Positions 30,236 through 48,635 of a stretch of DNA of 64,000 nt are shown here, in pieces. The stretch is from NCBI GenBank assembly GCA_964639985.1, contig CAZXHG010000013.1, positions 1,597-65,596 on the forward strand. The letters run 5' to 3'. The notes beneath the pieces are model-generated. The model saw only the letters and a list, made by a program, of their open reading frames with translations. It had not been told where the DNA came from and ran no database searches. Numbering within the stretch: position 1 is the first letter of the stretch; every line of letters starts with the position of its first letter. The position numbers were made by a program, and so were the translations under genes. Source of the DNA: an uncultured Rickettsiales bacterium. GTDB lineage: Bacteria > Myxococcota_A > UBA796 > UBA9615 > CAYRNR01.

Positions 30236-30700
30236 GTGCTGGGTGTACAGGGGCAGAGTCAGGGCAAGTTCGATGACCGGGGGCGGATCCCCCTGGGATC
30301 GAAGCTCAAGGAGGCGCTCCGGGCCCACGGCCACCACTCCATCGTCCTGACCTACAACGACGGCGCGGTCCAGGGCTTCACCCTCGACCAGTGGCGACGG
30401 CTCGAGCGGAAGGTCGCTCGCCAGCCTCGCTTCAACAAGGCAGCGCGCTCGTTCCAGCTGCTGTTCATGGGCATCGCCAACGAGGTGCCGGTGGACAAGC
30501 AGGGGCGAGTGCTGGTGCCGCAACACCTGCGCAAGCGTGCCGGTCTGGGCAAGGAGGCCGTGGTGCTCTCCTTCATGGACACCCTGGAGATCTGGGATCC
30601 GGACCGGCTGGAGACGCGGCGCGAGGAGGAAGCGGCGACAACGGATATCGGGGGCTTCCTGGACGACCTGGTGGTCCCCATGGACGACGAGGATGAATGA
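30236..30700 (+). CDS. mraZ: Division/cell-wall cluster repressor MraZ
   Basis: Two DxxGR motifs (DDRGRI, DKQGRV), LEIWD; first gene of the dcw cluster. Confidence 0.93.
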   Translation: MLGVQGQSQGKFDDRGRIPLGSKLKEALRAHGHHSIVLTYNDGAVQGFTLDQWRRLERKVARQPRFNKAARSFQLLFMGIANEVPVDKQGRVLVPQHLRKRAGLGKEAVVLSFMDTLEIWDPDRLETRREEEAATTDIGGFLDDLVVPMDDEDE

Positions 30701-31673
30701 ACGTGTTCGCCACCAGCCGGTCATGCTCTCCGAGACGGTCGAGGCCCTCGTCGTCGCGGGAGAGGGGCGTTATCTCGACGCCACGGCCGGCTGGGGCGGG
30801 CACGCGGAGGCGATAGCCCGGCGCCTGGGCGACTCCGGTCGCCTGCTGGCGTTGGACCGGGACCCTGCAGCAGTAGAAGCGGTATGCAGAAGGCTGGCGG
30901 AATTCGGAGAGCGGGTGCAGGTGCTGAGGAGCTCATACAGCAGGATGGCGGAGCAGGCCCGGGCGCTGGGGTGGCATCACGGTTCCCTCCGGGGGATCGT
31001 GATGGACCTCGGCGTGGGCTCCCACCAGTTGGACGACCCCGACCGCGGCTTCGCTTTCTCCCACGACGGCGAGCTCGACATGCGCTACCACCGCGAGCAG
31101 GGCCCCACGGCCGCGGACCTGGTCAACGACCTCGACGAACGCGAGCTGGCCGACACCCTGTGGCGTTACGGCGAGGAGCGAGGCTCCCGCCGCGTGGCGC
31201 GGGCGATCGTGCGGCGGCGACGCACGACCCCGTTCCGGCGCACCTCCGACCTGGCCGACGTGGTCTCGGCCGCGCTGGGAGGCCGGCGTGGCCGGCGCAC
31301 CCACCCGGCGACGCGCACCTTCCAGGCGCTGCGGATACGCGTCAATGGCGAGCTCGACGAGCTGCGGCGGGCCCTGCCCCAGGCCGTGCAGCTGCTCGCC
31401 CCTGGCGGCCGCCTGGCCGTGCTGAGCTTCCACTCGCTCGAGGATCGAGTGGTCAAGAACTTCCTGCGCGAGCAGGAGAACCCATGTACCTGCCCCCCCG
31501 ATCTCGGGGCCTGTGTCTGTCGGCGGATGCCGACGTTGAAGCGGATGCGGAAGAGGGCCTTCAAGCCCTCGGCTGAAGAGGTGAACCTCAACCCGCGGGC
31601 GCGTTCCGCCCTGCTCCGGGTCGCCGTACGGACGGAGCCTGCTCGCGGTGAGGTGCTGGACCGGAAGCAGTAG
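30693..31673 (+). CDS. rsmH: 16S rRNA m4C1402 methyltransferase
   Basis: HQPVM, DATAGWGGH, DLGVGSHQLD, HPATRTFQALRI, SFHSLEDR, NPRARSA. Confidence 0.97.
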   Translation: MNERVRHQPVMLSETVEALVVAGEGRYLDATAGWGGHAEAIARRLGDSGRLLALDRDPAAVEAVCRRLAEFGERVQVLRSSYSRMAEQARALGWHHGSLRGIVMDLGVGSHQLDDPDRGFAFSHDGELDMRYHREQGPTAADLVNDLDERELADTLWRYGEERGSRRVARAIVRRRRTTPFRRTSDLADVVSAALGGRRGRRTHPATRTFQALRIRVNGELDELRRALPQAVQLLAPGGRLAVLSFHSLEDRVVKNFLREQENPCTCPPDLGACVCRRMPTLKRMRKRAFKPSAEEVNLNPRARSALLRVAVRTEPARGEVLDRKQ

Positions 31674-31691
31674 AGGACGAGGTTGCTGACG

Positions 31692-32021
31692 ATGGACGGC
31701 AGACACGAGGACCGGAGATCGGGGGCGGTGGGCGCGGAGCGCGTCCGCCCGACGCACGGGACCTGGACACGCTGGGTTCCCTGGATCGCGCTGGTGTACA
31801 TCCTGCTGGGGGGCCTGTTCGTGGCGTGGGCCAAGATGGAGACCACCCAGCTGACGTACGAGGTGCACCAGCTTCGCAGTCAGCAATCGGAGTTGCAGCG
31901 GGAGCACCGCTTGCTCAACGCGGAGCTCGCCTCCTTGCGCGCGCCCGCGTACCTCAGTCAACGCGCAGACGAGATCGGTCTGCAGGAGGCCTCCGCTGGC
32001 GCTGTACGCCGCGTGGAGTGA
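31692..32021 (+). CDS. ftsL: Cell division protein FtsL
   Basis: One TM helix plus coiled coil ending LRAP..L...A.EIGL; position between rsmH and ftsI. Confidence 0.85.
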   Translation: MDGRHEDRRSGAVGAERVRPTHGTWTRWVPWIALVYILLGGLFVAWAKMETTQLTYEVHQLRSQQSELQREHRLLNAELASLRAPAYLSQRADEIGLQEASAGAVRRVE

Positions 32022-32038
32022 GAAGGGCTCGGGGGGTC

Positions 32039-34183
32039 ATGGCAGGCCGCAGAACGTTCGACCGGAACCTCGGAACCCCTCGCAGGCCATCCCCGACGAC
32101 CCGGCCTCGCACCACCGGCCGACGGGTGGTGCACTGGCGCTCCCAGGCCGTCCTGCTGCTGTTCGCGCTCGGATTCGGCCTGCTCGCCTACCGCACCGTT
32201 TCCCTGATGGTCGTCCCGGATCCGCAGCTCGAGGAGCGGATCACGAGACAGTACGAGAGCCCGGTGACGCTGCATCCCAAGCGGGGCGCGATCCTGGACC
32301 GCGCGGGCCGGGAACTGGCCGTGTCGGTCACACTGGATTCGATCTTCGCGGACCCGGCGCTCGTGGAAGACCCGATCGCAACGGCGCAGCAACTGGCGCC
32401 GGTGCTCGACCTGTCGCCGCAGGAGCTGGAGCAGGCGCTGCGCCGTGAGCGGAGGTTCGTGTGGTTGAAGCGGCAGGTCGACCCGGACGTCAGCGACGAG
32501 GTGCGGGCGCTGGGGCTCGACGGTGTGCGATGCACACCGGAGGCGAAGCGGCACTACCCCAATGGCATGCTGGCCGGCCAGATCCTCGGCTTCGTGGGTG
32601 TGGACGGCAACGGCCTCGAGGGGCTGGAGGCCCGCTACGACGAGATCCTGATGGGGGAGAAGGAGACCTACGTCTCCCTGCGTGACGGCCGTCGCCGCAA
32701 CATCACGCCCCAGGGGGTGGTGGTCAAGCGCTCCACCGAGGGGCACACCGTCCGGCTGACCATCGACCGGCACATCCAGTTCATCGCCGAGGAGGCGCTG
32801 GGGCGGGCGGTGGAGCTGTACCGCCCCAAGGGTGCGTTCGTGATCGTGATGGACCCCCACACCGGGGACCTGCTGGCCATCGCCAACGCGCCGACGTTCG
32901 ATCCCAACGAGTTCGGTGAATTCGATCGTGCCAGCTTCCGCAACCGCGCGGTCAGCGACTCGTTCGAGCCGGGCTCCACCATGAAGCCCTTCCTCGTCGC
33001 CACGGCGCTCGACCTCGGGCTGGTCACACCGCAGATGGTGTTCGACTGCGAGCACGGCGCGTACCGTATCGGCCGCAACACGATCCACGACACCCACGCC
33101 TACGACCTGATGACCGTGGACGAGATCCTGCAGGTCTCGTCCAACATCGGGTCGGCCAAGATCGCCGAGAAGGTCACCCCAGAGGGCCTGCACGACGCCT
33201 ACGCCCGGCTCGGCTTCGGGCGCTCCAGCGGGGTCGACCTGGCCGGTGAGTCCGGGGGGATCCTGCGGGACTGGCGGAGCTGGCGCCGCATCGGCCTGGC
33301 GACCCACGCCTTCGGCCAGGGCATCTCCGTCACCGGGATCCAGCTCGCGTCTGCGCTCAGCGCCGTGGCCAACGGCGGCACCCTGCTGCAGCCCCGGATC
33401 ATCCACGAGGTGCGGGACCGGCACGCCGAGCTCGTCGATGCCCGCGAGCCCGTGGCCGTGGACAGCTGCTTCGACGCCGACGCCGCACACGAGGTGCGCC
33501 GGATGATGGGCCTGGTCGTGGGGGAGGGCGGGACCGGGACGCGTGCGCGCCTGGATCGGTACTCCTGCGGTGGCAAGACCGGCACCGCCCAGAAGGTCAA
33601 CTCGGCCACCGGGCGCTACGACCGCACCATGTGGGTCAGCTCGTTCATCGGGTTCGCGCCGCTGGAGGATCCCCAGGTCGTGGTGGTCGTGGTGGTGGAC
33701 GAGCCCCAGGGCAAGCACTACGGCGGCACGGTCGCCGGCCCGGTGTTCAAGGAGGTGACCACCCGCACGCTGCAGTACCTGGGCGTGACGCCGCTCCCCG
33801 AGCCGGCGCCGGACGAGCTGCTCGCCGAACAGGTCGAGCAGCTCCAGCAGCAGGACGACCCGGACCCTTGTTCGCCGGAGTCGGACGCATCGGCGATGCG
33901 CGGCGCCGACGACCCGGGCCAGGAGGTGGACGTCGTCCCGCTCACCGAGGGCGACCTGGCCCTGTCCGTGGACGACCTCACCGACGATCTCGACGGCGAG
34001 GAGGCCATGCCCGACCTCGCCGGCCTGACCATCCGGGCAGCCGTGGCCCGGCTCGCCGAACGCGAGGTGGCGCTGCGCATCGAGGGCAGCGGCCGACTGG
34101 TCGAACAGCTTCCGCCCGCAGGCGCTCCGTTGCGCGAGGGCGACGAGGTGAGCCTCACGTTCGGGGAGGCGCAGCCGCAGTGA
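32039..34183 (+). CDS. ftsI: Penicillin-binding protein FtsI/PBP3 with C-terminal PASTA domain
   Basis: RGAILDR, EPGSTMK (SxxK), SSN (SxN), KTGTAQK, acidic linker, MPDLAGL PASTA start. Confidence 0.95.
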   Translation: MAGRRTFDRNLGTPRRPSPTTRPRTTGRRVVHWRSQAVLLLFALGFGLLAYRTVSLMVVPDPQLEERITRQYESPVTLHPKRGAILDRAGRELAVSVTLDSIFADPALVEDPIATAQQLAPVLDLSPQELEQALRRERRFVWLKRQVDPDVSDEVRALGLDGVRCTPEAKRHYPNGMLAGQILGFVGVDGNGLEGLEARYDEILMGEKETYVSLRDGRRRNITPQGVVVKRSTEGHTVRLTIDRHIQFIAEEALGRAVELYRPKGAFVIVMDPHTGDLLAIANAPTFDPNEFGEFDRASFRNRAVSDSFEPGSTMKPFLVATALDLGLVTPQMVFDCEHGAYRIGRNTIHDTHAYDLMTVDEILQVSSNIGSAKIAEKVTPEGLHDAYARLGFGRSSGVDLAGESGGILRDWRSWRRIGLATHAFGQGISVTGIQLASALSAVANGGTLLQPRIIHEVRDRHAELVDAREPVAVDSCFDADAAHEVRRMMGLVVGEGGTGTRARLDRYSCGGKTGTAQKVNSATGRYDRTMWVSSFIGFAPLEDPQVVVVVVVDEPQGKHYGGTVAGPVFKEVTTRTLQYLGVTPLPEPAPDELLAEQVEQLQQQDDPDPCSPESDASAMRGADDPGQEVDVVPLTEGDLALSVDDLTDDLDGEEAMPDLAGLTIRAAVARLAEREVALRIEGSGRLVEQLPPAGAPLREGDEVSLTFGEAQPQ

Positions 34184-35694
34184 AGATCCTGGCCCTGGAC
34201 GAGGCGGCCGCTGCCGTGCCGGAGGCGCGGATCAGCGGGCCGGCGAGTGGCACGATCGTGTCGCTGGCCTACGACTCGAGGTCGGTGGTGCCCGGCGGGC
34301 TGTTCGCGGCCATCCCGGGCACGCTGACCGACGGGCACCGCTTCATCGGTGCGGCCGTGGAGGCCGGCGCCACCGCCGTCGTGCTGGAGCGGCCCGTGGC
34401 CGACCTGCCCGACCACGTGACCGTCCTGCACGTCCCCGATGCCCGGCGCGCCCTGGCGCGCATCGCCGCCGCGTTCCACGGTGATCCCTCTCGTCGCCTG
34501 GCCCTCGCCGGCGTGACGGGGACCAACGGCAAGACCACCATCACCTACCTCGTCGAGGCGATCCTGCAGCGCGCCGGCCGCACGGTGGGAGCCGTCGGGA
34601 CCACCGGCATCCGGCTCGCTGGCCGCGTACGACCGGCCACGCACACCACACCGGAGGGGCCCGAACTGCAGGCCGCGCTGGCCCAGATGCGGGACGCGGG
34701 TGTGGACGCGGTCGTGATGGAGGTCAGCTCCCATGCCCTGCAGCAGGGGCGCGCCGTGGGCTGTCACCTGGACGTGGCCGCATTCGCCAACCTCAGCCGC
34801 GACCACCTGGACTTCCACGGCGACATGGCGCGATACCTCGAGGCCAAGAAGCGCATCGTGTCCGAGCTGCTGGCCTGCAGCGACAAGCCCCGACGTCGCC
34901 TGGTGGTCAACGTGGACGATCCCGAGGGGGAGGGATTCGTGGCTGGCTGGCGCGACGTGATCCGCGTGTCCGCTGGCGCCGTGACCGCGGCGGACGTGGT
35001 CCCGAGCGAGGTCGCGTTCGATCTCGAGGGGATCCGAGGGCAGCTGGTCACGCCGGCGGGACCGATCCGGCTGGAGTGCTCCCTGGTGGGGGCCTTCAAC
35101 CTGGCCAACGTGGTCGTGGCCACGGGGATCGCGCTGGCGCTGGACGTCCATCCGGATGCCATCGCCGACGGGCTGCGGGCCGTGCGCCGCGTGCCCGGGC
35201 GGCTGGAGCCGGTGACGCTGCCGCGCGGGCCAGGCCCCAGCGTGGACGTGCCCACCGTACTCGTGGACTACGCGCATTCGCCCGACGCCCTGCAACGGGT
35301 GCTGGCCGCGCTGCGACCCCTGGTGCCCGGACGCATCGTGACGGTGTTTGGCTGCGGTGGCGACCGCGACCGCGGCAAGCGACCGCTGATGGGTGAGGCC
35401 GCCGCGGGCGGCTCGGACCTGTCCGTGGTGACCACCGACAACCCACGCAGCGAGGACCCCGCGGCCATCATCGCCGAGGTCCTGCCCGGCGTGCAGCGGA
35501 CGGGCGGCGATCACCTCGTGGAGGTTGATCGCCGCCGCGCGATCCATCGGGCCGTGGCCGAGGCGGACCCGGCGGACCTGGTGCTGGTCGCGGGCAAGGG
35601 GCACGAGCAGGTGCAGGTCGTGGGAGACCACGCCCACCGGTTCGACGATCGGGACGTGGCGCTCGAGGCGCTCGAGCGACGGGTGACCCCATGA
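34180..35694 (+). CDS. murE: UDP-MurNAc-tripeptide synthetase (meso-DAP type)
   Basis: GVTGTNGKTT, HTTPE, MEVSSHA, DYAHSPD, GCGGDRD, DNPR (DAP specificity motif), AGKGHE. Confidence 0.97.
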   Translation: MKILALDEAAAAVPEARISGPASGTIVSLAYDSRSVVPGGLFAAIPGTLTDGHRFIGAAVEAGATAVVLERPVADLPDHVTVLHVPDARRALARIAAAFHGDPSRRLALAGVTGTNGKTTITYLVEAILQRAGRTVGAVGTTGIRLAGRVRPATHTTPEGPELQAALAQMRDAGVDAVVMEVSSHALQQGRAVGCHLDVAAFANLSRDHLDFHGDMARYLEAKKRIVSELLACSDKPRRRLVVNVDDPEGEGFVAGWRDVIRVSAGAVTAADVVPSEVAFDLEGIRGQLVTPAGPIRLECSLVGAFNLANVVVATGIALALDVHPDAIADGLRAVRRVPGRLEPVTLPRGPGPSVDVPTVLVDYAHSPDALQRVLAALRPLVPGRIVTVFGCGGDRDRGKRPLMGEAAAGGSDLSVVTTDNPRSEDPAAIIAEVLPGVQRTGGDHLVEVDRRRAIHRAVAEADPADLVLVAGKGHEQVQVVGDHAHRFDDRDVALEALERRVTP

Positions 35695-37106
35695 GCACCC
35701 TGTTCCACCCTCCTCGCGAGATCGCGACCGAGCAGCTCCTGGCCGCGGTCTCGGGACAGCTGTCGGGCACGGTCGGACCGGGCCCCTGGCGGGTGACCAC
35801 CGACTCTCGTGCGGCAGGGCCGGGCACGGTGTTCTTCGCGTTGGCGGGTGATCGTTTCGATGGCCACGACTTCGTGGGCGACGTGCTGGCACGGGGTGGG
35901 ACGGGCGCGGTGGTGGCGGAGTCTCACGCCTCGGCCCGCGCCGAGGTGCCCGCTGGCAGCTTCGTGGTGGGGGTGGACGATCCCCTGGTCGCCCTGGGGC
36001 AGCTGGCCCGGTCCGTGCGGCGCAGCGCTGACGTGCCCGTCATCGGCCTGACCGGCTCCAGCGGCAAGACCACCACGCGAGACATGATCGCCGCGGTGAT
36101 GCGCACTGCCGGCTCGGGGCTGGCCACCACGGGCAACTTCAACAACCTCGTGGGCCTGCCCCTGACCCTGATGCACCTGCAGGACGATCACGCCTGGATC
36201 GTGCTGGAGATGGGGATGTCCGCACCCGGCGAGATCCGGGAGCTGGCCCGCATCGCCGAGCCCGGCATCCGGCTGGTGACCAACGTGGCCGCCGCCCACC
36301 TGGAGTTCTTCGCGGACCTCGACGGCGTGGCCCGGGCCAAGGGCGAGCTGTTCGAGGACGCGAGGCCAGGTGAGGTGCTGATCACCAACGCGGACGATCC
36401 GCGCAGCGCGCTGTTCCCGCGACCGGACGGCACGCGGGAGATCCGTTTCGGCGCCCGCGCCGAGGCCGACGTGCGCATCCTGCGGGTGGACGCGGCCGAC
36501 CTGGACGGCAGCCGTGCCGTGCTGTCCCTGTTCGGCGACGAGCTGACCTGCGACGTGCCGCTGCCGGGGAGGCACAACGTGGCCAACGCGGCCGCCGCGC
36601 TGGCGGTGGCCTGGGCCGCAGGCGTCGACCCCGAGGCCGCGGCGGCGACGCTGTCCGGCGTGCGTGTCACCGGGGGGCGTATGCAGGTGCGCGAGATCGG
36701 CGATGTGCACGTGATCGACGACACGTACAACGCCAACCCCCGCTCCGTGGCGGCCGCGCTCGAGACCCTGGTCACGGGCGAGGGTGGCGGGCGGCGGTTC
36801 GCGGTGCTGGGCGACATGCTGGAGCTGGGGGTCACCGGCGCGGAGCTCCACCGGGAGATCGGGGAGACGGCCGCGGCCCTCGATGTGGACCGGCTGATGG
36901 TGACCGGGCCCCTGGGCCGGCACCTGGCCGAGGGTGCGCGAGCAGCCGGCATGAGCCCGGAACGGGTGGGCTGGTATGCGTCCCACGACGACCTCGTACA
37001 TGACCTGCTCGCCGAGCTCGAGGCCGGCGATCGCGTCCTGGTCAAGGGATCGCGGGGCATGCACATGGAGCGGGTGGTCCAGGGAATCGAGGCACGACAG
37101 CGATGA
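35691..37106 (+). CDS. murF: UDP-MurNAc-pentapeptide synthetase
   Basis: TDSR, TGSSGKTTTRD, NFNNLVGLP, EMGMSAPGEI, DTYNANP, GDMLELG, KGSRG. Confidence 0.97.
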   Translation: MSTLFHPPREIATEQLLAAVSGQLSGTVGPGPWRVTTDSRAAGPGTVFFALAGDRFDGHDFVGDVLARGGTGAVVAESHASARAEVPAGSFVVGVDDPLVALGQLARSVRRSADVPVIGLTGSSGKTTTRDMIAAVMRTAGSGLATTGNFNNLVGLPLTLMHLQDDHAWIVLEMGMSAPGEIRELARIAEPGIRLVTNVAAAHLEFFADLDGVARAKGELFEDARPGEVLITNADDPRSALFPRPDGTREIRFGARAEADVRILRVDAADLDGSRAVLSLFGDELTCDVPLPGRHNVANAAAALAVAWAAGVDPEAAAATLSGVRVTGGRMQVREIGDVHVIDDTYNANPRSVAAALETLVTGEGGGRRFAVLGDMLELGVTGAELHREIGETAAALDVDRLMVTGPLGRHLAEGARAAGMSPERVGWYASHDDLVHDLLAELEAGDRVLVKGSRGMHMERVVQGIEARQR

Positions 37107-38449
37107 GGCTCCGCGAGACCAAGGTGCTGGTGATGGGCCTGGGCCGTAGCGGCCAGGCGGCCCTCCGCCTGTGCGCCCGCAGCGGGGCCCGCGTCACCGG
37201 GACCGACCGACGCAGCGCCGACCAGCTGGCCGCCGTGGTCGCCCTCGCCAGGAGCGAGGGAGCCTCGCTCGTGCTGGGTGAGCACCGCGAGCAGGACTTC
37301 CTCGACGCGGATCTGATCGTGCTCAGTCCGGGGATACCGCCGGAGCAGGCGCACGTGGCCGCGGCCATCCGGGCGGGGGTGCCCGTGATCGGTGAGCTCG
37401 AGCTGGCCTGTTCGCAGCTGGACTGTGTGGTCGTGGGCATCACCGGGACCAACGGCAAGTCGACCACCACCACCTTCTGCGGGGACCTGCTGGTCGCAGC
37501 CGGGCGGTCGGTGTTCGTCGGGGGCAACCTCGGCGTGCCCCTCAGCGACGGTGTGCTCGAGGGCCCCTACGACCTCGCCGTGGTCGAGGTGAGCTCCTTC
37601 CAGCTCGAGACCGCGCCCACCTTCCACCCCCGCGTGGCCGCCCTGCTCAACCTGACCGAGGACCACCTGGACCGGTACCCGAGCTTCGAGGCCTACTGCG
37701 ACGCCAAGGCCAACATCTTCGTGAACCTGGGCGAGGACGACACCGTCGTCTACAACGCCTCCGATACCCGGGTCGTGGCGATGATCTCGCACGTCCCGGG
37801 TCGCCACCTGGCCTTCTCCTTGCGCGACCACGGCGTCGACGGCGCGTTCCTCGACGGTGGTTCACTCGTCGTGCGGCGAGGCGGAGTGGTCCAGCGCGTG
37901 GAGCTGGAACCGTTCGCCGTGCCGGGTGCCCACAACATCGAGAACCTGATGGCCGCGCTGCTTTGCACGCTCGCCGCAGGCGCGGATCTCGAGGCCGTGG
38001 CCGAGGCGCTGCCGACGCTGCGCGGGCTGCCGCACCGGATGGAGTGGGTGGGAACGGTCGATGACGTGGCCTTCTACAACGACAGCAAGGCCACCAACGT
38101 CGCGTCCGCGGCCAAGACCCTAGAGGGGTGCCCCCGCCCGGCCGTGGTCCTGCTCGGCGGCAAGGACAAGGGGGGCGACTACGGGCCGCTGGTCCAGGCC
38201 CTGGCCGAGCAGGCCCGGGGTGCGGTCGTGTTCGGCCAGGCCGCGGACGTGATCGCCGGGGCCCTGACCGAGGGCGGCGTCCCGTTCGAGCGAGCGGAGG
38301 ACCTGGCTGGCGCCCTGGCCGCGGCGCAGACGATCGCCCGCCCGGGCGATGCGGTGCTGCTGAGCCCAGCGTGCTCCAGCTACGACCAGTTCCGTGACTA
38401 CGAGCAGCGCGGGGACACCTTCCGCACGCTGGTGGAGGATCTGCGATGA
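37103..38449 (+). CDS. murD: UDP-MurNAc-L-Ala--D-Glu ligase
   Basis: GLGRSG, SPGI, ITGTNGKSTTT, GGNLG, EVSSFQL, HRME, NDSKATN, LSPACSSYDQF. Confidence 0.97.
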   Translation: MRLRETKVLVMGLGRSGQAALRLCARSGARVTGTDRRSADQLAAVVALARSEGASLVLGEHREQDFLDADLIVLSPGIPPEQAHVAAAIRAGVPVIGELELACSQLDCVVVGITGTNGKSTTTTFCGDLLVAAGRSVFVGGNLGVPLSDGVLEGPYDLAVVEVSSFQLETAPTFHPRVAALLNLTEDHLDRYPSFEAYCDAKANIFVNLGEDDTVVYNASDTRVVAMISHVPGRHLAFSLRDHGVDGAFLDGGSLVVRRGGVVQRVELEPFAVPGAHNIENLMAALLCTLAAGADLEAVAEALPTLRGLPHRMEWVGTVDDVAFYNDSKATNVASAAKTLEGCPRPAVVLLGGKDKGGDYGPLVQALAEQARGAVVFGQAADVIAGALTEGGVPFERAEDLAGALAAAQTIARPGDAVLLSPACSSYDQFRDYEQRGDTFRTLVEDLR

Positions 38450-39642
38450 AGGCCGTTCGGCGACACGTGGACCCCGTACTGATGACCTGTGTGCTGGGTC
38501 TCGTCGGACTCGGCATCGTCATGGTCTACTCGGCCGGCGGTGTGCGTGCGGCCGACGTGTACGGCCAGGAACACTTCTACCTGTCGCGGCAGGCCGCGTT
38601 CGCCTGTGTGGGGCTGCTCGCGATGGCGATCGCGGCACGCATCCCCTACCAGTTCTACCGGCGCTGGACGTACCCCATCCTGGGCACGGTGATGGTGATG
38701 CTGGTGCTGGTGTTCATCCCCGGGGTGGGCAGCACCATGGGTGGTGCCACCCGCTGGATCAACCTGCACTTCATCTACCTGCAGCCCTCGGAGCTGGCCA
38801 AGTTCGCGCTCGTGCTGTACCTGGCCTACTCGCTGGCCAAGAAGCAGGAGCACATCGACACGTTCTCGGTGGGCATCCTGCCCCACCTGATCGTCGCGGG
38901 ACTGGCCCTGGCGCTGATCCTGCTGGAGCCGGACTTCGGCACCACCGCGGTGCTGGCCTCGATCCTGTTCGCGATGATGTTCATCGCCGGGACCCGGATC
39001 CTGCACCTGTCGGCCATCTTCACCGTGGCCCTGCCCCTGGCCTTCGTGGTGCTGATCGGGGCGGAGTACCGGCGCCGCCGGTTGCTGGCGTTCCTCGATC
39101 CCTGGGCCGACCAGGCGGACACCGGCTTCCACATCATCCAGAGCTGGCTGGCGTTCCACCGCGGGGGGGCCTTCGGGGTCGGGCTCGGCGCGGGCACCCA
39201 GAAGCTGTTCTACCTGCCCGCAGCGCACACGGACTTCATCTTCAGCGTGGTAGGCGAGGAGCTGGGCCTGGTCGGTGTGACGCTGACCCTGGCCGCCTTC
39301 GCCGTGTTCATCTGGCGGGGGACCACGCTGTCGCGCCGAGCTCCCGACCTGTTCGGCCAGCTGCTGGGCACGGGCATCACCTTCATCATCGGCCTGCAGG
39401 CCGTGATCAACATGATGGTCGTCACCGGATTGCTGCCCACCAAGGGGTTGACCTTGCCCTTCGTCAGCTACGGAGGATCCTCCCTGGTGGCCTACCTGTT
39501 CATGGTGGGCGTGCTGCTCAACATCAGCTCCCAGGCCCTGGTGGGCAACCGCCGGGTTCGCGGGGGGCAACCGGACGAGCCGCAGCGGCGGTGGTCTCCG
39601 GTGGGCGGGGGCAAGGTGCCCGACCGGGGGGACTGGCTGTGA
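38446..39642 (+). CDS. ftsW: SEDS peptidoglycan polymerase FtsW
   Basis: GATRWI, QPSELAK, EPDFGT, LPAAHTDFIF, LPTKGLTLPFVSYGGSS. Confidence 0.97.
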   Translation: MKAVRRHVDPVLMTCVLGLVGLGIVMVYSAGGVRAADVYGQEHFYLSRQAAFACVGLLAMAIAARIPYQFYRRWTYPILGTVMVMLVLVFIPGVGSTMGGATRWINLHFIYLQPSELAKFALVLYLAYSLAKKQEHIDTFSVGILPHLIVAGLALALILLEPDFGTTAVLASILFAMMFIAGTRILHLSAIFTVALPLAFVVLIGAEYRRRRLLAFLDPWADQADTGFHIIQSWLAFHRGGAFGVGLGAGTQKLFYLPAAHTDFIFSVVGEELGLVGVTLTLAAFAVFIWRGTTLSRRAPDLFGQLLGTGITFIIGLQAVINMMVVTGLLPTKGLTLPFVSYGGSSLVAYLFMVGVLLNISSQALVGNRRVRGGQPDEPQRRWSPVGGGKVPDRGDWL

Positions 39643-39692
39643 CGACACTGCGACTGGACGCCCGCCAGCGAGCGGGCTGGAGGCGAGCATGA
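39639..39692 (+). pseudogene. 17-codon mini-ORF (MTTLRLDARQRAGWRRA) at the murG position; putative deletion scar
   Basis: GTG overlaps the ftsW TGA (GTGA) and its TGA overlaps the murC ATG (ATGA). The murG origin is inference. Confidence 0.45.
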
Positions 39693-41092
39693 AGGCGCTG
39701 TTCCGCAGGACCCGACGGGTCCACTTCGTCGGCATCGGCGGGATCGGCATGAGTGGGATCGCCGAGGTCCTGATCAACCTGGGCTACGAGGTGTCCGGGT
39801 CGGACCTGCGCGAGTCGCCGGTCACGCGCCAGCTCGTCTCCCAGGGCGCGGAGGTGGCCCTCGGCCACGCGGCGGACAACGTCGAGGGGTCCCACGTGGT
39901 GGTGATCAGCTCGGCGGTGAAGGACGACAACGTGGAGGTGGTGGCGGCCTACGACCGGGGGATCCCGGTGATCCCGAGGGCCGAGATGCTCGCCGAGCTG
40001 ATGCGCATGAAGCACGGCCTCGCCGTGGCCGGCAGCCACGGCAAGACCACGACCACGTCCATGCTGGCCGAGTGCCTGGCCGCGGCCAACATGGATCCCA
40101 CGGTGGTCGTGGGCGGTCGGCTCAACTCCATCGACAGCAACGCCAAGCTGGGGGAGGGGGACTTCCTGGTCGCCGAGGCCGACGAGAGCGACGGCTCCTT
40201 CCTCAAGCTGTCGCCCACGGTCGCGATCGTGACCAACATCGACCGCGAGCACATGGACCACTACCAGGACTTCGACACCCTGGTGCAGGCGTTCCTCGAC
40301 TTCATCAACAAGGTGCCGTTCTACGGCGCGGCCGTGATCTGCCTGGACCACCCCGTGATCCAGAAGATCATCCCCCGCATCCACAAGCGCTACATCACCT
40401 ACGGGCTGTCCTCGCAAGCCGAGGTGCACGCCGTGGACCTGCACTTCAGCGGCGGCACCAGCGTGTTCACGGTGATGCACAACGACCGATGGCTGGGCAA
40501 GGTCGAGCTGAACATGCCCGGCCGACACAACGTGCTCAACGCCCTGGCCGTGGTCGCGGCCAGCCTCGAGGTGGACATCCCGTTCAAGGTCGTGCGTCGT
40601 GCGTTGAACCAGTTCGGCGGCGTGTCGCGGCGATTCACGGAGCGTGGCAACGAGGGCGGCGTGCTGGTGATCGACGACTACGGGCATCACCCCGTGGAGA
40701 TCCGCTCCACCCTGCAGGCGGCCCGCGAGGGATTCGGCAGGCGCGTGATCTCCGTGTTCCAGCCGCACAGGTTCTCGCGCATACAGGACCTGCAGGATGA
40801 TTTCATGAGCGCATTCAACGACACGGATCTGCTCGTGGTGACCGACATCTACGCCGCCGGGGAGCGGCCGGTGGAGGGGGTCACCGGTCGGGGCCTGTAC
40901 CAGGGACTGCGGGAGCACGGTCACAAGAATGCGGTGTACCTGCCGGATCGTGCGGCGATCGTGGCCTACCTGCTGGACACGGTGGAGAAGGGCGACATCG
41001 TGATCACGCTGGGTGCGGGTGACGTGTACCGGGTCGGTGAGGAGCTGCTCGAAGGACTTCGCGAACGAGGTAGGGGTGGCGATGGCGGTTGA
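39689..41092 (+). CDS. murC: UDP-MurNAc--L-alanine ligase
   Basis: HFVGIGGIGMSG, GSHGKTTTT, EADESDGSF, DDYGHHP, QPHRF, GAGD. Confidence 0.98.
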   Translation: MKALFRRTRRVHFVGIGGIGMSGIAEVLINLGYEVSGSDLRESPVTRQLVSQGAEVALGHAADNVEGSHVVVISSAVKDDNVEVVAAYDRGIPVIPRAEMLAELMRMKHGLAVAGSHGKTTTTSMLAECLAAANMDPTVVVGGRLNSIDSNAKLGEGDFLVAEADESDGSFLKLSPTVAIVTNIDREHMDHYQDFDTLVQAFLDFINKVPFYGAAVICLDHPVIQKIIPRIHKRYITYGLSSQAEVHAVDLHFSGGTSVFTVMHNDRWLGKVELNMPGRHNVLNALAVVAASLEVDIPFKVVRRALNQFGGVSRRFTERGNEGGVLVIDDYGHHPVEIRSTLQAAREGFGRRVISVFQPHRFSRIQDLQDDFMSAFNDTDLLVVTDIYAAGERPVEGVTGRGLYQGLREHGHKNAVYLPDRAAIVAYLLDTVEKGDIVITLGAGDVYRVGEELLEGLRERGRGGDGG

Positions 41093-42062
41093 CCCCCGGC
41101 GACGCGGCCGGTCGCGCCAGCGGCTGGACGAGGCCCGGCGGCAGCAGCTCGCTGCGCTGGAGGCAGGGGACGTGCGCTTCGACGAGTCCATGTGCGCCTG
41201 GACCGCGTTCCGCAGCGGTGGCCCGGCCGAGGCCCTGGTGGCCGTGCAGGACGTTCCCGGGTGGCTGGCCCTGCTGCGCTGGTGTCGCGAGGAGCGCGTC
41301 CCGGTGTTCGTGCTCGGCGAGTCGCACGGCGTGCTGGTCGGGGACGGCGGCGTGGACGGGGTCGTGGTGGTCACCCGGGGCTGTCACACGGTACGCCCGG
41401 TGGACCGGGAGATCGACCCGGTCGAGATCCTGGCCGAGGTGCCCGCGGCCGTGATCGTGGCCGAGGCCGGGGCCACCCTGGGCAGGCTGGCGCAGGCGTC
41501 CGCGGACCTCGGCTTCGACGTGCCCTTCGGCGCCCCAGGGCAGGACGGCACCGTGGGGGGCGTGGTGCGCCGCTGCTTCGGCGAGCTGCGCGAACACGTG
41601 GTGGCCGTGGGCGTGCTCACGGATCGCGCCCGGATCCAGGTCCGGCTGGCGCGGGAGGTGGATCCCGACGTGGACGCGTTCCCCCTGCGTGTGAGGCAGG
41701 CCATCGCCTGGGTCGCGTTCGCGCTGCCCCGGTCCACGACCGGCGATCTGTTCGCCGGTGAAGAAATTACCACTGGTAGCAGGAAAACAGAGGAAAACGT
41801 GCGGAATGGTAGATTTCGCATGTTCCTGGATCCTCGGGAATCCACAGCCTCCGAGGTCCTGCAATCCGTGGACGTCAAGGGCATCCGCCTTCGTGATGTC
41901 ACGCTGGACGAGCAGGATCCCAACGTGGCCGTGAACCTGGGGGAGGGGTCGAGTCACGACCTCCAGCTGCTCGTCGCCTACCTGGCCGAGCGGGTTTCCA
42001 GTCGTGCTGGTGTGAAGCTGGAACCCGCCTATCGTGCGCGTGGTAAAAAAAGACAAACTTGA
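41082..42062 (+). CDS. MurB-like FAD-fold protein with degenerate active-site motifs
   Basis: Sits in the murB slot. WTAFRSGGPA, VLVGDGGVDGVV, AEAG, GTVGG, VKG...NVAVNLG...GVKLEP align to MurB, but the GxGSN, YRxS, GSxF and ExE motifs are altered. Confidence 0.8.
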   Translation: MAVDPRRRGRSRQRLDEARRQQLAALEAGDVRFDESMCAWTAFRSGGPAEALVAVQDVPGWLALLRWCREERVPVFVLGESHGVLVGDGGVDGVVVVTRGCHTVRPVDREIDPVEILAEVPAAVIVAEAGATLGRLAQASADLGFDVPFGAPGQDGTVGGVVRRCFGELREHVVAVGVLTDRARIQVRLAREVDPDVDAFPLRVRQAIAWVAFALPRSTTGDLFAGEEITTGSRKTEENVRNGRFRMFLDPRESTASEVLQSVDVKGIRLRDVTLDEQDPNVAVNLGEGSSHDLQLLVAYLAERVSSRAGVKLEPAYRARGKKRQT

Positions 42063-42074
42063 CGCGCGCGTAGG

Positions 42075-42103
42075 TTGACAATATTGGCGCAAACCCCCAA
42101 AAT
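42075..42103 (+). promoter_or_regulatory. Internal sigma70 promoter upstream of ddl (TTGACA-17-CAAAAT)
   Basis: -35 at 42075-42080, -10 at 42098-42103, in an AT-rich 86-bp gap. Confidence 0.65.
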
Positions 42104-42148
42104 CGACATTGCGGTGGTAGCTGTATTTCAGGCTGTACAGGCAGGCGG

Positions 42149-43090
42149 ATGCTGGATGCGTGGCGGGACAGGAAGATCGCGGTGCTCCTCGGCGGGCTGA
42201 GTGCCGAGCGCGACGTCTCGCTGGCCAGCGGTGCCGCTGTCGCATCGGCCCTGCGCGATCGTGGCTACGACATCGCCGAGATCGACGTGGGGCGGGACCT
42301 CTCCAGTCAACTCCACGACGCAGGCGCCGAGGCAGCCGTGATCCTGCTGCACGGCACGTTCGGCGAGGACGGCTGTGTTCAGGGCGTGCTCGAACTGCTC
42401 GACATCCCGTACTCCGGGTCGGGCGTGGCCGCATCCGCGCTGGCCATGGACAAGGTCCGGACCAAGCGACTGCTGGAGGCCAGCGGTCTGCCCGTCCCCC
42501 GGGACCGGGTGCTCACACCGGACGAGGCGCTCGCCGCAAACGTGCACATCCCGTTCGGCATCCCGCTGGTGGTCAAGCCCGCGGCCGAGGGCTCGAGCGT
42601 GGGGACGGCGGTGGTCACGGACCGCGCTGATCTCGCCGACGCGCTGACCGACGCGGCGCGCTACGGCCGGGTCCTGGTCGAGGAATTCGTGGCCGGCCCC
42701 GAGGTCACGGTGGCCATGCTGGACGGACGGCCGCTGCCGCCGGTGGAGATCCGACCCCACGACGGGTTCTACGACTACCGCAACAAGTACACCAAGGGGC
42801 GGACCGTCTACATCTGCCCCGCAGAGATCAGCACGGCCGCGACCGCGAGCATCCAGCGGATGGCCGTGAAGGCCTGTGACCTGGTGGGTGTGCGCGGCGT
42901 GGCGCGCGTGGACTTCATGCTCGGCGGTGGCGACGCCCCGCACCTGCTCGAGATCAACACCATCCCCGGCATGACCGAGCTGTCGCTGGTGCCCATGGCC
43001 GCCCGGGAGGCGGGCCTGTCCTTCGGTGACGTGGCCGAGCGTATGCTGGCCGGAGCGCGGTGCGAGCTGCGCGCCGCGGAGGCGGACTGA
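42149..43090 (+). CDS. ddl: D-alanine--D-alanine ligase
   Basis: GGLSAERDVSL, LHGTFGEDG, MDK, EGSS, FYDYRNKY (Tyr omega loop), EINTIPG. Confidence 0.97.
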   Translation: MLDAWRDRKIAVLLGGLSAERDVSLASGAAVASALRDRGYDIAEIDVGRDLSSQLHDAGAEAAVILLHGTFGEDGCVQGVLELLDIPYSGSGVAASALAMDKVRTKRLLEASGLPVPRDRVLTPDEALAANVHIPFGIPLVVKPAAEGSSVGTAVVTDRADLADALTDAARYGRVLVEEFVAGPEVTVAMLDGRPLPPVEIRPHDGFYDYRNKYTKGRTVYICPAEISTAATASIQRMAVKACDLVGVRGVARVDFMLGGGDAPHLLEINTIPGMTELSLVPMAAREAGLSFGDVAERMLAGARCELRAAEAD

Positions 43091-44508
43091 TGGGCGTGCT
43101 GGACACCCAGACGGTCCGTCGCACGGCCAACCGCAGGTTGGGGCGGGAGAAGGTCACCGAGGCGCCGCAGCGGAGCACGCGCGAGGCCCGGAGCCGACGT
43201 GCGCCCGACAGCGAGGTCCGTCCCCGACTGTCGAAGAAGCAGCCGTCCGACAGCTTCCGGGCGGTGTCCCCGGGTCGCGGATTCCCGCTCCAGGTGTGGT
43301 TCGAGGAGGCGCTGGCCGCCCTGATCGACGTCAGCCGACGCGCCGTGGGCGCGACCGGGTGGTTCGGTGCGGCGCTCAGCGCGGTGGTCGGGTCGGTGGC
43401 GTTCGCCCTGGTCTGGTCCGCGGCCACCTCCCTGTCCCTGGGCTGGCGCGCATTCCGCTGGAGCCTGGCGATGGCCCGCCGGGGGCTGGTGTTCCTGATG
43501 CCCCACCTGCGAACGGGCGTGGAGCATTCCGCACGGATCGGCAGGCAGGGCGCGATCCACTCGGCCCGGGCCGGTCGGCAGGTGGCCACGCAGACCCGCA
43601 CGCAGATCCGGACTCAGGCCGAGGACATGCGGGACGGGTTCCCGGACCTGCAGGAAGGCGCCGAGGCCGCGCAGCGGGCCTGGCTGCGGTTCCTCGGCTA
43701 TGCCGTGTACCAGCGCCGCGAGCTGCAGCGACAGGGATTCCTCGATCGGCCGGGCTGGCGCCAGGCGCTGAACGCGACGACCGTGGGCCTCGTGATCGGC
43801 GGGACCCTGCTGACCGTGACCGCGGCCGCGCTGTTCGGACCGCAGCTGCTGCGGGAGAGCGACGCCCTGTGTCTCCACGAGATCAGCGTGCGTGGCAACG
43901 ACATGGTGCCCGTCGGCGTGATCCTGGAGACCGCGGACGTGGATATCGGCGACAACCTCACCACGCTGGACCTCGCGGCCATCGCCGACGAGCTGTCCGC
44001 GTTGCCCTGGATCGAGTCCGCCACCCTGCGGCGCAGCTACCCGGACCGGCTGACGGTGCAGGTGGTCGAGCGCCAGCCCGCGCTGATGCTGGCCGACGAG
44101 CAGCTGTGGTTCGTGGACCACCTGGGCGAGGTGTTCAAGCCGGTGGACCCGACCGAGTGGACCGACCTGCCGGTGATCACTGGCATCGACGTGGACCAGC
44201 GCGCCGTGGATCCGGACGGCAGCCGGGAACGACTGCGTCGCGCCCTGGCGGTGATCGCGGCGATCGGCGAGTCACAGTCGCTGGAAGCCGACGACATCGG
44301 CGAGGTCGCCGTGGAGCGGGGTGGCCTGTACCGGGTGCGCCTGGTCGAGCAGCAGGTGGACCTCCGGCTGGCCGAGGACAACTACGAGACCGGGTTGCAG
44401 CGACTCGATTCCCTGCTGACCCGCGAGCTGATCGCCCTGGACCAGGTGGAGAGCCTGGACCTGGCGCTGCGCAACCAGGTGGTCGCGACCTGGAAGGCGG
44501 AGTTATGA
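43090..44508 (+). CDS. ftsQ: Cell division protein FtsQ with long N-terminal extension
   Basis: POTRA region (ISVRGN...LPWIESATLRRSYPDRLTVQVVERQP), DLPVITG, LDLALRNQVV; position between ddl and ftsA. Confidence 0.88.
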   Translation: MGVLDTQTVRRTANRRLGREKVTEAPQRSTREARSRRAPDSEVRPRLSKKQPSDSFRAVSPGRGFPLQVWFEEALAALIDVSRRAVGATGWFGAALSAVVGSVAFALVWSAATSLSLGWRAFRWSLAMARRGLVFLMPHLRTGVEHSARIGRQGAIHSARAGRQVATQTRTQIRTQAEDMRDGFPDLQEGAEAAQRAWLRFLGYAVYQRRELQRQGFLDRPGWRQALNATTVGLVIGGTLLTVTAAALFGPQLLRESDALCLHEISVRGNDMVPVGVILETADVDIGDNLTTLDLAAIADELSALPWIESATLRRSYPDRLTVQVVERQPALMLADEQLWFVDHLGEVFKPVDPTEWTDLPVITGIDVDQRAVDPDGSRERLRRALAVIAAIGESQSLEADDIGEVAVERGGLYRVRLVEQQVDLRLAEDNYETGLQRLDSLLTRELIALDQVESLDLALRNQVVATWKAEL

Positions 44509-45731
44509 GCAAACCCAACCTGATCGTCGGCCTCGACATCGGCACGACCAAGATCGCCGCCATCGTCGGGGAGCAGACGGACCATGGACTGGAGATCGTG
44601 GGGATCGGCACGCACCCGAGCAACGGGCTGCGCAAGGGCGTGGTGATCAACATCGAGTCCACGGTCGACTCCATCCAGAAGGCCGTGGAGGAGGCCGAGC
44701 TGATGGCGGGCGCGGAGATCAGCTCCGTGTTCGTGGGCATCGCGGGCGGTCACATCAAGTCGCTCAACTCCCAGGGCACGGTCGCGATCAAGGACCACGA
44801 GGTCACGGGGCTGGACGTGAGCCGGGTGCTGGACACGGCCCAGGCCGTGGCCATCCCGATGGATCGGGAGCTGATCCACATCATCCCGCAGGAGTACATC
44901 GTCGACGATCTCGAAGGGATCAAGGATCCCCGCGGCATGCGCGGCGTGCGGCTGTCGGCCAAGGTGCACATCGTCACCGGCGCGGTCACGTCGGCCCAGA
45001 ACATCGTCAACTGCTGTAACAAGTCCAGCCTCAACGTGCGTGATATCGTGCTGGAGCAGCTCGCGGCCAGCGAGGCCGCGCTGACCCCGGACGAGCGTGA
45101 CCTCGGCGTGATGCTGGTGGACATCGGCGGCGGGACCACGGACATCGCCATCTTCGTGGACGGGGCCGTGGTGCACACCAGCGTGCTGGCCCTGGGCGGC
45201 GACCACATCACCCACGACATCGCCTACGGGTTGCGCACCCCAGCGACCGAGGCGGAGCGGATCAAGCGCAAGCACGGCTGCGCGCTGGCCGCGATGGTGG
45301 ACGAGGACACCAGCTTCGAGGTGGAGTCCGTGGGCGGGTCGAGGACCCGCACGACCAACAAGACGATCCTGGCGGAGATCATCGAGCCCCGGGTCACGGA
45401 GATCTTCTCCCTGGTCCACCAGGAGCTGGTACGCACTGGTCTGGAGGATCACCTCCCGGCCGGCGTGGTGCTGACCGGCGGCTCGGTCATCCTGCCGGGC
45501 ATGCCCGAGCTCGCCGAGCGAGTGTTCGGCATGCCCGCGCGCAGGGGCAGTCCCCGGGAGACCGGCGGCCTCACCGATGTCATCAACAGCCCGATCTTCG
45601 CGACGGGCGTGGGGCTGGTGAAGTACGGCATGGCGCATGACACCGAGGAGTCGAAGTCGAACGGCGGCTCGCCGTCGATCTACGACTGGATTCGTCGCAC
45701 CATGCAGGGTTGGGTGAAGAAGGCTGTATAG
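44505..45731 (+). CDS. ftsA: Cell division protein FtsA
   Basis: GLDIGTTK, GLRKGVVINI, VDIGGGTTD, AERIK, LTGG, FATGVGL. Confidence 0.98.
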   Translation: MSKPNLIVGLDIGTTKIAAIVGEQTDHGLEIVGIGTHPSNGLRKGVVINIESTVDSIQKAVEEAELMAGAEISSVFVGIAGGHIKSLNSQGTVAIKDHEVTGLDVSRVLDTAQAVAIPMDRELIHIIPQEYIVDDLEGIKDPRGMRGVRLSAKVHIVTGAVTSAQNIVNCCNKSSLNVRDIVLEQLAASEAALTPDERDLGVMLVDIGGGTTDIAIFVDGAVVHTSVLALGGDHITHDIAYGLRTPATEAERIKRKHGCALAAMVDEDTSFEVESVGGSRTRTTNKTILAEIIEPRVTEIFSLVHQELVRTGLEDHLPAGVVLTGGSVILPGMPELAERVFGMPARRGSPRETGGLTDVINSPIFATGVGLVKYGMAHDTEESKSNGGSPSIYDWIRRTMQGWVKKAV

Positions 45732-45790
45732 CTGGAGCTGTAGCAGAGAACAACGCTGACGCACGAGCGAGAACGAGAGCGGGGAACGAG

Positions 45791-47050
45791 ATGACGATTT
45801 CTTTTGCGGACATGCCAGAGGTGAGGCCTCCCACCGATTGCGACGACGTGGTCGTGCTCAAGGTGGTGGGCGTGGGCGGTGGCGGCGGCAACGCGGTCAA
45901 CACGATGGTGGAGTCCGGGCTGAGGGGCGCGGAGTTCATCGCCACCAACACCGACCAGCAGGCGCTGCGAGAGCTGAAGGTCACGCAGAAGGTGCAGCTG
46001 GGGTACGGCATCACCAACGGGCTCGGTGCGGGCGCGCGGCCCGAGGTGGGACGCCAGGCGGCCGAGGAGAGTGTCGAGGAGATCAAGGGGCTGCTGGCGG
46101 GCTCCAACATGGTCTTCGTGACCGCGGGCATGGGCGGCGGTACAGGCACCGGCGCGGCGCCGATCATCGCCCGAGCGGCCAAGGAGGTCGGCGCGCTGAC
46201 CGTGGGCGTGGTCACCAAGCCGTTCAACTTCGAGGGCAAGAAGCGACGCCGGCACGCCGACCAGGGCATCCGCGAGCTGCGCGAGGTGGTGGACACGCTG
46301 ATCGTGATCCCCAACCAGCGGCTGCTGAGCATCGCGGGCGAGAACACCTCGATGAAGGACGCCTTCCGCAAGGCCGACGAGGTGCTGCTGCACGCGGTCA
46401 AGGGGATCGTGGAGCTGATCCAGGTCAAGGGCATCATCAACGTGGACTTCGCGGACGTGCGTACCGTGATGAGCAACCAGGGCCTGGCGCTGATGGGTAT
46501 CGGTTCGGCCAACGGCAAGATGAAGGCCGTGGAGGCCGCGCAGCGCGCCATCTCCAGCCCGCTGCTGGACGAGATCAGCATCACGGGCGCCACCGGCATC
46601 CTGATCAACATCACGGGCAACAGCGACCTCAAGCTCTACGAGGTCAACGAGGCGGCCACGTTGATCCAGGAGGAGGCGGACGAGGACGCGGAGATCATCT
46701 TCGGCTGGGTCATCGACGACACCATGGAGGACGAGGTCCAGGTGACGGTGATCGCCACGGGCTTCGAGGCCGAGGAGCAGGTGGTCAATCCGAGCGCGCC
46801 GCCGCTGAGCGGCGTGTTCCGGCCGGTGCCGCCGCGCACTCAGGCGGTCACACCGTGGGCCGGCGCCAGCGATCCGCTGGACGTGCCGACCGCGGTGCGA
46901 GAGCGGAAGATCACGCAGGAGTACGACAAGCCGCCCCAGGAGGATTCGAGGCTCCTGGAGCGTGACCGGCAGCAGGTGCTGGAACAGCAGGTGCCGCTGG
47001 ACATGGACGAACTGGATCGACCGGCCTACATGCGAAAGATCGCGGACTAG
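45791..47050 (+). CDS. ftsZ: Cell division protein FtsZ
   Basis: GVGGGGGNAVN, GLGAGA, GMGGGTGTG, NVDFADV, C-terminal LDRPAYMRK. Confidence 0.99.
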   Translation: MTISFADMPEVRPPTDCDDVVVLKVVGVGGGGGNAVNTMVESGLRGAEFIATNTDQQALRELKVTQKVQLGYGITNGLGAGARPEVGRQAAEESVEEIKGLLAGSNMVFVTAGMGGGTGTGAAPIIARAAKEVGALTVGVVTKPFNFEGKKRRRHADQGIRELREVVDTLIVIPNQRLLSIAGENTSMKDAFRKADEVLLHAVKGIVELIQVKGIINVDFADVRTVMSNQGLALMGIGSANGKMKAVEAAQRAISSPLLDEISITGATGILINITGNSDLKLYEVNEAATLIQEEADEDAEIIFGWVIDDTMEDEVQVTVIATGFEAEEQVVNPSAPPLSGVFRPVPPRTQAVTPWAGASDPLDVPTAVRERKITQEYDKPPQEDSRLLERDRQQVLEQQVPLDMDELDRPAYMRKIAD

Positions 47051-48450: not shown

Positions 48451-48526
48451 TGGCAGGCGAGGAAGGACTCGAACCTCCAGCCAACGGTTTTGGAGACCGC
48501 TGCTCTACCATTGGAGCTACTCGCCC
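48451..48526 (-). tRNA. trnW: tRNA-Trp (CCA)
   Basis: Cloverleaf; anticodon loop CT-CCA-AA; G73; encoded CCA end. Confidence 0.95.
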
Positions 48527-48535
48527 GCGATGAGC

Positions 48536-48620: not shown

Positions 48621-48635
48621 ACGAAAAGGTGAAAC

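Follow-up and report, generated by a model that had tools for sequence, protein, structure and literature searches.

Results

A dcw cluster without mraY and murG

[quoted passage not shown] MraY and MurG are antibiotic targets; to our knowledge, both count as universal among bacteria with a wall, and few gene arrangements are as conserved as the dcw cluster.

Pfam searches of the open reading frames (ORFs) in the window gave the order mraW-ftsI-murE-murF-murD-ftsW-murC-murB-ddl-ftsQ, to which gene calls on L051, a public contig 99.995% identical to the window, added mraZ, an ftsL-like gene, ftsA and ftsZ (Table 1). This collinear, one-strand arrangement is that of the canonical dcw cluster, found in the closest relatives (L001-L007 and L096, described below), in E. 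coli and in Myxococcota generally, with the same orientation and the same tight 4-nt overlaps. The canonical cluster, however, has mraY and murG, whereas the window is without both, each removed at gene boundaries, and neither a MraY (PF00953) nor a MurG (PF03033/PF04101) domain was found in the cluster by Pfam among the ORFs of the window. The remaining cluster genes, those flanking the two deletion sites among them, are all full length, and the cluster is surrounded by the single-copy housekeeping genes smpB, cysS, prmA and that of RNase E/G.

Table 1. Features of the dcw cluster and of its two altered junctions, in window coordinates
Feature	Position	Strand	Basis
dcw cluster without mraY and murG (mraZ, mraW, ftsL-like, ftsI, murE, murF, murD, ftsW, murC, murB, ddl, ftsQ, ftsA, ftsZ)	30236..47050	+	Pfam and L051 gene calls
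ftsI, class B penicillin-binding protein (PBP) with C-terminal PASTA domain, intact	32039..34183	+	Pfam; gene call
murE, intact	34180..35694	+	Pfam; gene call
murF, 471 aa, intact	35691..37106	+	Pfam
ATGA overlap of murF stop and murD start, mraY deletion site	37103..37106	+	Sequence; relatives have a 1074-nt mraY here
murD, 448 aa, intact	37103..38449	+	Pfam
ftsW, 398 aa, intact	38446..39642	+	Pfam PF01098, 1.9e-106
46-nt ftsW-murC spacer, murG deletion site	39643..39688	+	Junction table; ~1.1-kb murG here in relatives
17-codon mini-ORF (GTG...TGA), spanning the old murG start to stop positions	39639..39692	+	Sequence; position match to relatives
GGAGG Shine-Dalgarno of murC, 5 nt 5' of the ATG	39679..39683	+	Sequence
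murC, 467 aa, intact, length and start as in relatives	39689..41092	+	Pfam; 84% identity to relatives

The ftsI/murE, murE/murF, murF/murD and murD/ftsW junctions are all 4-nt overlaps, such that ftsW-murC is the sole non-overlapping junction from ftsI to murC. The mini-ORF at this junction was the subject of the original prediction, which described it as lying exactly where murG should be and read it as an in-frame murG deletion scar that kept the start and stop codons of the gene to preserve translational coupling, in a cluster that lacks mraY too. The sequence is as described there, with a GTG overlapping the ftsW stop codon, a TGA overlapping the murC start and the GGAGG of murC inside the mini-ORF.

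The PASTA domain at the C-terminus of FtsI (Pfam 2.6e-8) has a weak counterpart in one relative (L098); such domains are best known in Gram-positive PBPs and kinases.

mraY and murG were lost on the branch of the window

Using the FtsW of the window as query, with one genome taken per species, we found seven close genomes (L001-L007) whose FtsW proteins are 73-84% identical to it, followed by Myxococcota at no more than 45%. Protein searches and context look-ups contributed further relatives (L053-L061 and L096-L100), bringing the comparison to at least 15 distinct ones in addition to the window, and the order murF-mraY-murD-ftsW-murG-murC was present in every relative examined (at least 15/15, with FtsW in the same identity range). 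The murF-murD and ftsW-murC gaps each measure ~1.1 kb in all seven close genomes; in the relatives the former encodes a MraY of 357-358 aa (...MAPFHHHLE...) and the latter a MurG of 369-373 aa (...VIAGGGTGGHFFSG...). Flanking proteins are 63-84% identical between the window and its closest relatives, and each relative genome gave a single dcw cluster. The placement of the mini-ORF where murG should be is thus correct, resting on the gene order of the relatives and not on the ORF itself, and mraY is indeed missing as well, since the relatives carry it where murF and murD of the window overlap by 4 nt.

In a neighbour-joining tree of concatenated proteins, the window is sister to L096 and stands beside the L001/L002/L053 group, with L003-L007 outside. 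Because the window is nested within a clade possessing both genes, their absence is a derived loss on its own branch; an ancestral absence, the alternative polarity, is ruled out by the tree. In a collection of 5.8 billion proteins, which we searched for homologues of FtsW, MurG and MraY, no FtsW fell between 84% and 100% identity to that of the window, so that the deletions are not datable within its long branch, and a scan of Joint Genome Institute (JGI) metagenomes for closer relatives gave nothing above 49%. It is almost certain that murG was deleted exactly at ftsW/murC and mraY at murF/murD, and that both deletions are real, fixed and lineage-specific. Two separate clean deletions removed just the two lipid-linked steps, a single-species event in a strictly conserved clade.

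The records of the seven closest genomes, whose GC content is 67-72%, read 'uncultured Rickettsiales bacterium'. This label looks wrong; their nearest named homologues are from Myxococcota or 'Deltaproteobacteria'.

Independent contigs carry the same junctions

The FtsW of the window occurs on eight public contigs, and DNA was compared for seven: L051 (71 kb, ENA ERZ23498668), L052 (2.6 kb, ENA ERZ23498658) and L091-L095 (2.3-31 kb, from five different IMG metagenomes). These represent seven samples from two sources (JGI and ENA) and are 99.99-100% identical to the window. Assemblies holding the population are IMG 3300009008, 3300009128, 3300013118, 3300013119 and 3300007511 and ENA ERZ23498668 and ERZ23498658; to judge by their naming, the samples may be from the Cariaco Basin, a guess on which none of the results rests. 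The exact 46-nt spacer was found in 7/7 contigs and the murF/murD ATGA junction in 4/4 of those that reach that far (L051, L091, L092 and L094), and murG stands beside the window-type FtsW on no contig carrying that FtsW. Identical junctions in contigs assembled independently, with different pipelines, indicate that the double deletion is fixed in a near-clonal natural population and does not stem from misassembly. An assembly collapse or chimera that skipped both genes is therefore hardly credible, the more so as both junctions lie exactly at gene boundaries between full-length neighbours; collapse at ftsW-murC in particular, which the original prediction had named as the result that would undo it, is excluded by the seven contigs of 2.3-71 kb from as many samples that share the spacer.

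Contig ends recur at 35512 (L091 and L094) and at 33822 (L092 and L093), and the seven contigs differ from one another only by T/A at 35516 and by C/G at 47669; strain-level variation inside murE may be breaking the assemblies.

The two deletion junctions

At the mraY junction, murF ends ...CAG CGA TGA, with the murD ATG inside those bases. In the relatives, mraY starts a few bases 5' of the murF stop, and murD starts, with GTG, 2-6 nt past the mraY stop. The MurD N-terminus of the window (M R L R E T K V L V M G) aligns with that of the relatives (M E L R G R R V L V M G), and its murF is one codon shorter than that of L002. The mraY deletion ran from start codon to start codon, leaving a coupled junction.

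Around murG, most relatives show the same kind of coupling. The murG start (GTG, ATG or TTG) overlaps the ftsW stop in 8/12 (L001, L002, L006, L053, L058, L060, L061 and L096), an overlap that was read as RTGA and, in L053, L058, L060, L061 and L096, confirmed by gene calls as one of 4 nt; L005 and L007 also carry RTGA and, with the ftsW frame unchecked there, stand outside this count, and a few bases separate the ftsW stop from the murG start downstream of it in L003 and L004. The murG stop overlaps the murC ATG as ATGA in 8/12 relatives, the other 4/12 being without murG-murC coupling. Overlaps of both types (GTGA and ATGA) are common to the window and L001, L002, L053, L058, L060, L061 and L096. 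GGAG(G) precedes murC in all relatives. The GGAGG that serves as Shine-Dalgarno sequence of their murG reads GGGGGG in the window, where the GTGA overlap itself is present.

In the window, ftsW ends CTG TGA, and the G of CTG together with the TG of the stop forms the GTG (39639-39641) of the mini-ORF, whose 17 sense codons read V T T L R L D A R Q R A G W R R A; its TGA, at 39690-39692, overlaps the murC ATG at 39689 as ATGA. The same frame is open from 38394, the mini-ORF being the tail of a 432-aa alternative-frame ORF over ftsW, so that the figure of 17 codons hinges on picking the GTG at the ftsW stop. Long alternative-frame ORFs are commonplace at ~70% GC; considered as a gene, the 432-aa frame (38394-39692, plus strand) was rejected as a high-GC artefact, with the GC content of third codon positions (GC3) marking the ftsW frame as the coding one. 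Under the base composition of the window, the double-overlap geometry arises by chance with a probability of ~0.13, the product of 0.51 (start codon formed), 1/3 (length class) and 0.74 (no earlier stop), and the in-frame state of the leftover has a prior of 1/3.

We compared the mini-ORF and the spacer with 12 murG genes, controlling the alignments against dinucleotide shuffles. Smith-Waterman alignment gave p = 0.07-0.9, within the range of the shuffles and with the best matches away from the termini, and tests anchored at the murG termini gave p = 0.12 for the first 45 nt and p = 0.23-0.52 for the last 60 nt. Two resemblances that strike the eye were discarded on these grounds: GAC GCC CGC CAG (D A R Q), set in the murG frame against the MurG C-terminal motif D-V-A-R-Q-C-E (GAC GTG GCC CGC CAG in L053), is suggestive and fails the shuffle control, and a GCCCGCCAG...CGAG match to murG is not significant. 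In the reading of the mini-ORF as an in-frame murG deletion scar, then, the deletion and the start and stop positions stood, and the leftover is in frame from start to stop, whereas the interior of the mini-ORF shows no likeness to murG above chance and the termini of murG in relatives do not resemble it beyond chance, an outcome that the original prediction had set as one that would refute it. We regard the mini-ORF as a leftover junction that is bounded, by position, by the old murG start and stop, with a murG scar at the level of sequence unproven.

The mini-ORF is most likely a non-coding spacer

The original prediction further held that the mini-ORF was kept for translational coupling, which in its full form would make it a selected, translated device: ribosomes would reinitiate after ftsW, read 17 codons and stop on the murC ATG. 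The geometry speaks for such a device, as the mini-ORF shares bases with the stop codon of ftsW at one end and with the start codon of murC at the other, both at murG positions, which would restore the chain of 4-nt overlaps running from ftsI to ftsW, and as the mraY deletion likewise left a coupled ATGA. Against it, that geometry is expected in ~13% of such spacers by chance, and the codons look non-coding: the codon adaptation index is 0.45, compared with 0.76 +/- 0.14 for real in-frame 16-codon windows (the bottom 2%, a value typical of off-frame sequence), GC3 is 0.71 as against 0.85-0.95, in a genome with a value near 0.9, and CGA occurs three times among the codons, with AGG, ACA and GCA once each. 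Moreover, the upstream GGAGG has been turned into GGGGGG, murC has its own GGAGG at optimal spacing, and 4/12 relatives manage without coupling murG to murC. All known copies of the mini-ORF are identical, coming from clonal contigs, and so give no conservation signal to read. A selected coupling device is accordingly unlikely, and its keeping for that purpose stays a conjecture.

Nor did the spacer offer another function among those we looked for. RNA structure in its 46 nt is not significant (z = +0.82), no promoter- or terminator-like site was found in it, Rfam returned only tRNAs from the window, and a search for a repeat or mobile origin gave an exact match only at its own junction in contigs of its own species (102 loci searched, the window itself not among them). 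Most likely, the mini-ORF is a non-coding spacer, in which the ribosome-binding site of murC is the part that works.

The remaining cell wall genes are under ordinary constraint

The state of the remaining genes is informative about whether lipid I and II are produced: by the established biochemistry of the pathway, lipid II is the substrate that FtsW polymerises into the product cross-linked by FtsI, and the substrate of MraY comes from the Mur ligases. We set dN/dS for window-relative pairs against relative-relative pairs at the same distance, and found 0.25 (with L002) against 0.26 for ftsW, 0.22 against 0.19 for murC and 0.37 against 0.36 for murD. Tajima relative-rate counts, taken for the window and L002 with L005 as outgroup, were similarly balanced, at 17 against 17 for ftsW, 28 against 26 for murC, 47 against 52 for murE and 38 against 54 for ftsI (window first). 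At columns that do not vary among any of the other taxa, the window shows 5/221 changes in FtsW and 8/336 in FtsI, no more than any relative. Across ftsW, ftsI, murC-F and ddl there was no frameshift, acceleration or excess of invariant-site changes, which bears out the prediction that the ligases, FtsW and FtsI are intact. This constraint speaks for continued synthesis of lipid I and II, provided that the deletions are not very recent.

Among the cluster genes, ftsA (44505-45731) alone is significantly faster in the window lineage, with counts of 35 for the window and 14 for L002 (p = 0.003) and with 14/293 changes at otherwise invariant sites.

Just past the right end of the window (L101, 16673-18418) lies a gene for a protein with an OmpA (peptidoglycan-binding) and a TIG domain, adjoining one for a TPR/YfiO-like protein. 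The pair resembles Pal-CpoB and lends indirect support to a walled organism.

A search for the missing enzymes

Matching the MraY and MurG of three relatives to the 64-kb window by tblastn gave no match (best E 0.056), and Pfam found no GT4 or GT28 domain in 30 further ORFs of the window. Beyond it, we searched the protein collection for orphan copies with the MurG and MraY of one relative as queries, and assessed the top matches of both searches. Every top match above ~53% (MurG) or 65% (MraY) identity was either shown to lie in a canonical cluster or belonged by sequence to a known relative clade; the nine context look-ups (P0002, P0003, P0004, P0005, P0008, P0043, P0244, P0245 and P0246) all returned canonical clusters, none from the samples of the window. 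A relocated native copy would be expected to be ~70% identical and to be assembled in some of the at least seven metagenomes holding the species, yet none was found among the top matches; a simple relocation is therefore not supported. The options that remain are replacement by distant or foreign homologues and true loss.

Combining these results, we arrive at the following course of events. One deletion removed mraY, leaving murF and murD overlapping by ATGA, and the other murG, leaving 46 nt between ftsW and murC. The clean junctions may have survived by keeping the essential genes downstream expressed, with ribosomes that finish ftsW possibly traversing the mini-ORF. Lipid I and II are most likely still made, by MraY- and MurG-type enzymes that would be encoded outside the 64-kb window and are probably not native copies. 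To this reading as a whole (two clean lineage-specific deletions, a mini-ORF that is most likely non-coding spacer, and substitute enzymes of the MraY and MurG type beyond the window) we assign a probability of roughly 0.6; continued synthesis of lipid I and II from genes elsewhere is, taken separately, probable.

Several points weigh against this reading. Neither gene was found in the ~71 kb of the genome that was examined (the window and ~7 kb of flank), and the best matches of the two protein searches included neither a native-like mraY nor a native-like murG away from canonical clusters, in a collection of 5.8 billion proteins that covers at least seven metagenomes with this species assembled. 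The location of the enzymes elsewhere is inferred from the constraint on their partner genes, with those ~71 kb in view, and if the deletions are very recent, constraint averaged over a long branch would not reveal a lost function.

Alternative explanations of the double absence

Could the cluster be a second, reduced paralogue in a genome whose primary cluster, for example one of the L096 type, retains mraY and murG? A canonical cluster with an FtsW 83% identical to that of the window does occur in the same metagenome series (3300013120 and 3300009431). The two types were found in different samples, however, and relative genomes hold one cluster each; the cluster in the window has its own full ftsQ-ftsA-ftsZ and sits among smpB, cysS, prmA and RNase E/G, and the divergence of 17-50% per protein fits species-level distances in the tree. 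A paralogous cluster is thus very improbable.

Another alternative is a true loss, in which mraY and murG would be gone from the genome and the remaining wall genes recently orphaned or re-used, in a cell that is wall-deficient or obtains the function otherwise. The lack of a native-like orphan among the best database matches, despite at least seven assemblies of the species, favours it, as does the fact that both lipid-linked steps, and only those, were removed by two separate deletions. On the other side stand the partner genes, those of the lipid II users FtsW and FtsI and those of the four ligases and Ddl, which supply MraY, as they show no frameshift or acceleration and few invariant-site changes; the genotype is fixed and recurrent across samples; a gene for a peptidoglycan-binding OmpA-domain protein lies nearby; and MurG and MraY are essential in walled bacteria (PMC8092295; also established knowledge). 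We consider a genome-wide loss of this kind quite unlikely. Improbable, too, is true loss or non-orthologous displacement in the form in which the canonical MraY and MurG were dispensed with and lipid I and II, or equivalents, come from non-orthologous or very divergent enzymes, with the ligases, FtsW and FtsI still needed; if true, two enzymes held to be universal and essential where there is a wall would both have been displaced in nature.

Other genes in the window

Elsewhere, the window holds a dense array of tRNA genes on the minus strand (48451-49518), ~1.4 kb 3' of ftsZ, in which ARAGORN called 10 genes (Trp, Tyr, Asn, Ile, Cys, Gly, Leu, Lys, Met and Asp) and Rfam one extra (48639-48715); the loci of the relatives compared here stop just before the corresponding position. 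Redox genes at 3-8916 encode a molybdopterin oxidoreductase, a multihaem cytochrome c, a Rieske protein, a pyridine-nucleotide-disulphide oxidoreductase with Fe-S domains and an HdrD-like CCG/4Fe-4S protein. Two large proteins are encoded at 11903-15118 and 20152-23331, one of ~1070 aa with BNR/Sortilin repeats and one of ~1060 aa with a transglutaminase core and five MopE-type metal-binding repeats.

Discussion

A precedent for the kind of substitute proposed here is MglA, a protein 31% identical to MurG and encoded outside the dcw cluster, which is able to stand in for MurG in Kitasatospora and Streptomyces (Zhang et al. 2021, PMC8092295). In that case, lipid II synthesis does not have to rest on a murG within the cluster. 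The two situations differ in that the actinomycetes keep the canonical murG in every strain, its removal having been done in the laboratory, whereas the bacterium studied here is naturally without murG, and without mraY, in its cluster.

Dispersed or incomplete dcw clusters are found in cyanobacteria, Deinococcota, Planctomycetota and Chlamydiota, lineages which have pathway genes outside the cluster without loss of peptidoglycan synthesis. Those, however, are old, clade-wide rearrangements, whereas the window records a single-species event at exactly the two lipid-linked steps. In the literature searched, we found no description of a natural lineage without mraY that has the ligases.

In two more distant Myxococcota loci from metagenome-assembled genomes (L008 and L009, with FtsW 43-45% identical to that of the window), the MurD and MurC of the window found no match between murF, ftsW and ftsQ, which suggests that the set of genes gone from those clusters is another one.

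The mini-ORF itself is a minor matter. Its ends look like the real ATGA/GTGA couplings of the operon, at ftsI/murE, murE/murF, murF/murD and murD/ftsW, but it differs from a coupled gene in its 17 non-coding-like codons and degraded Shine-Dalgarno sequence, and at best it offers a small illustration of how an operon with close coupling tolerates a deletion.

What is of interest is the double excision, which amounts to a natural experiment: both lipid-linked steps have been cut out of the cluster, while every soluble step, the polymerase FtsW and the transpeptidase FtsI have been kept under selection. If mraY and murG moved or were replaced together, this would inform on the functional linkage of the two enzymes; alternatively, lipid I and II may be made or bypassed by a route that has so far escaped notice.

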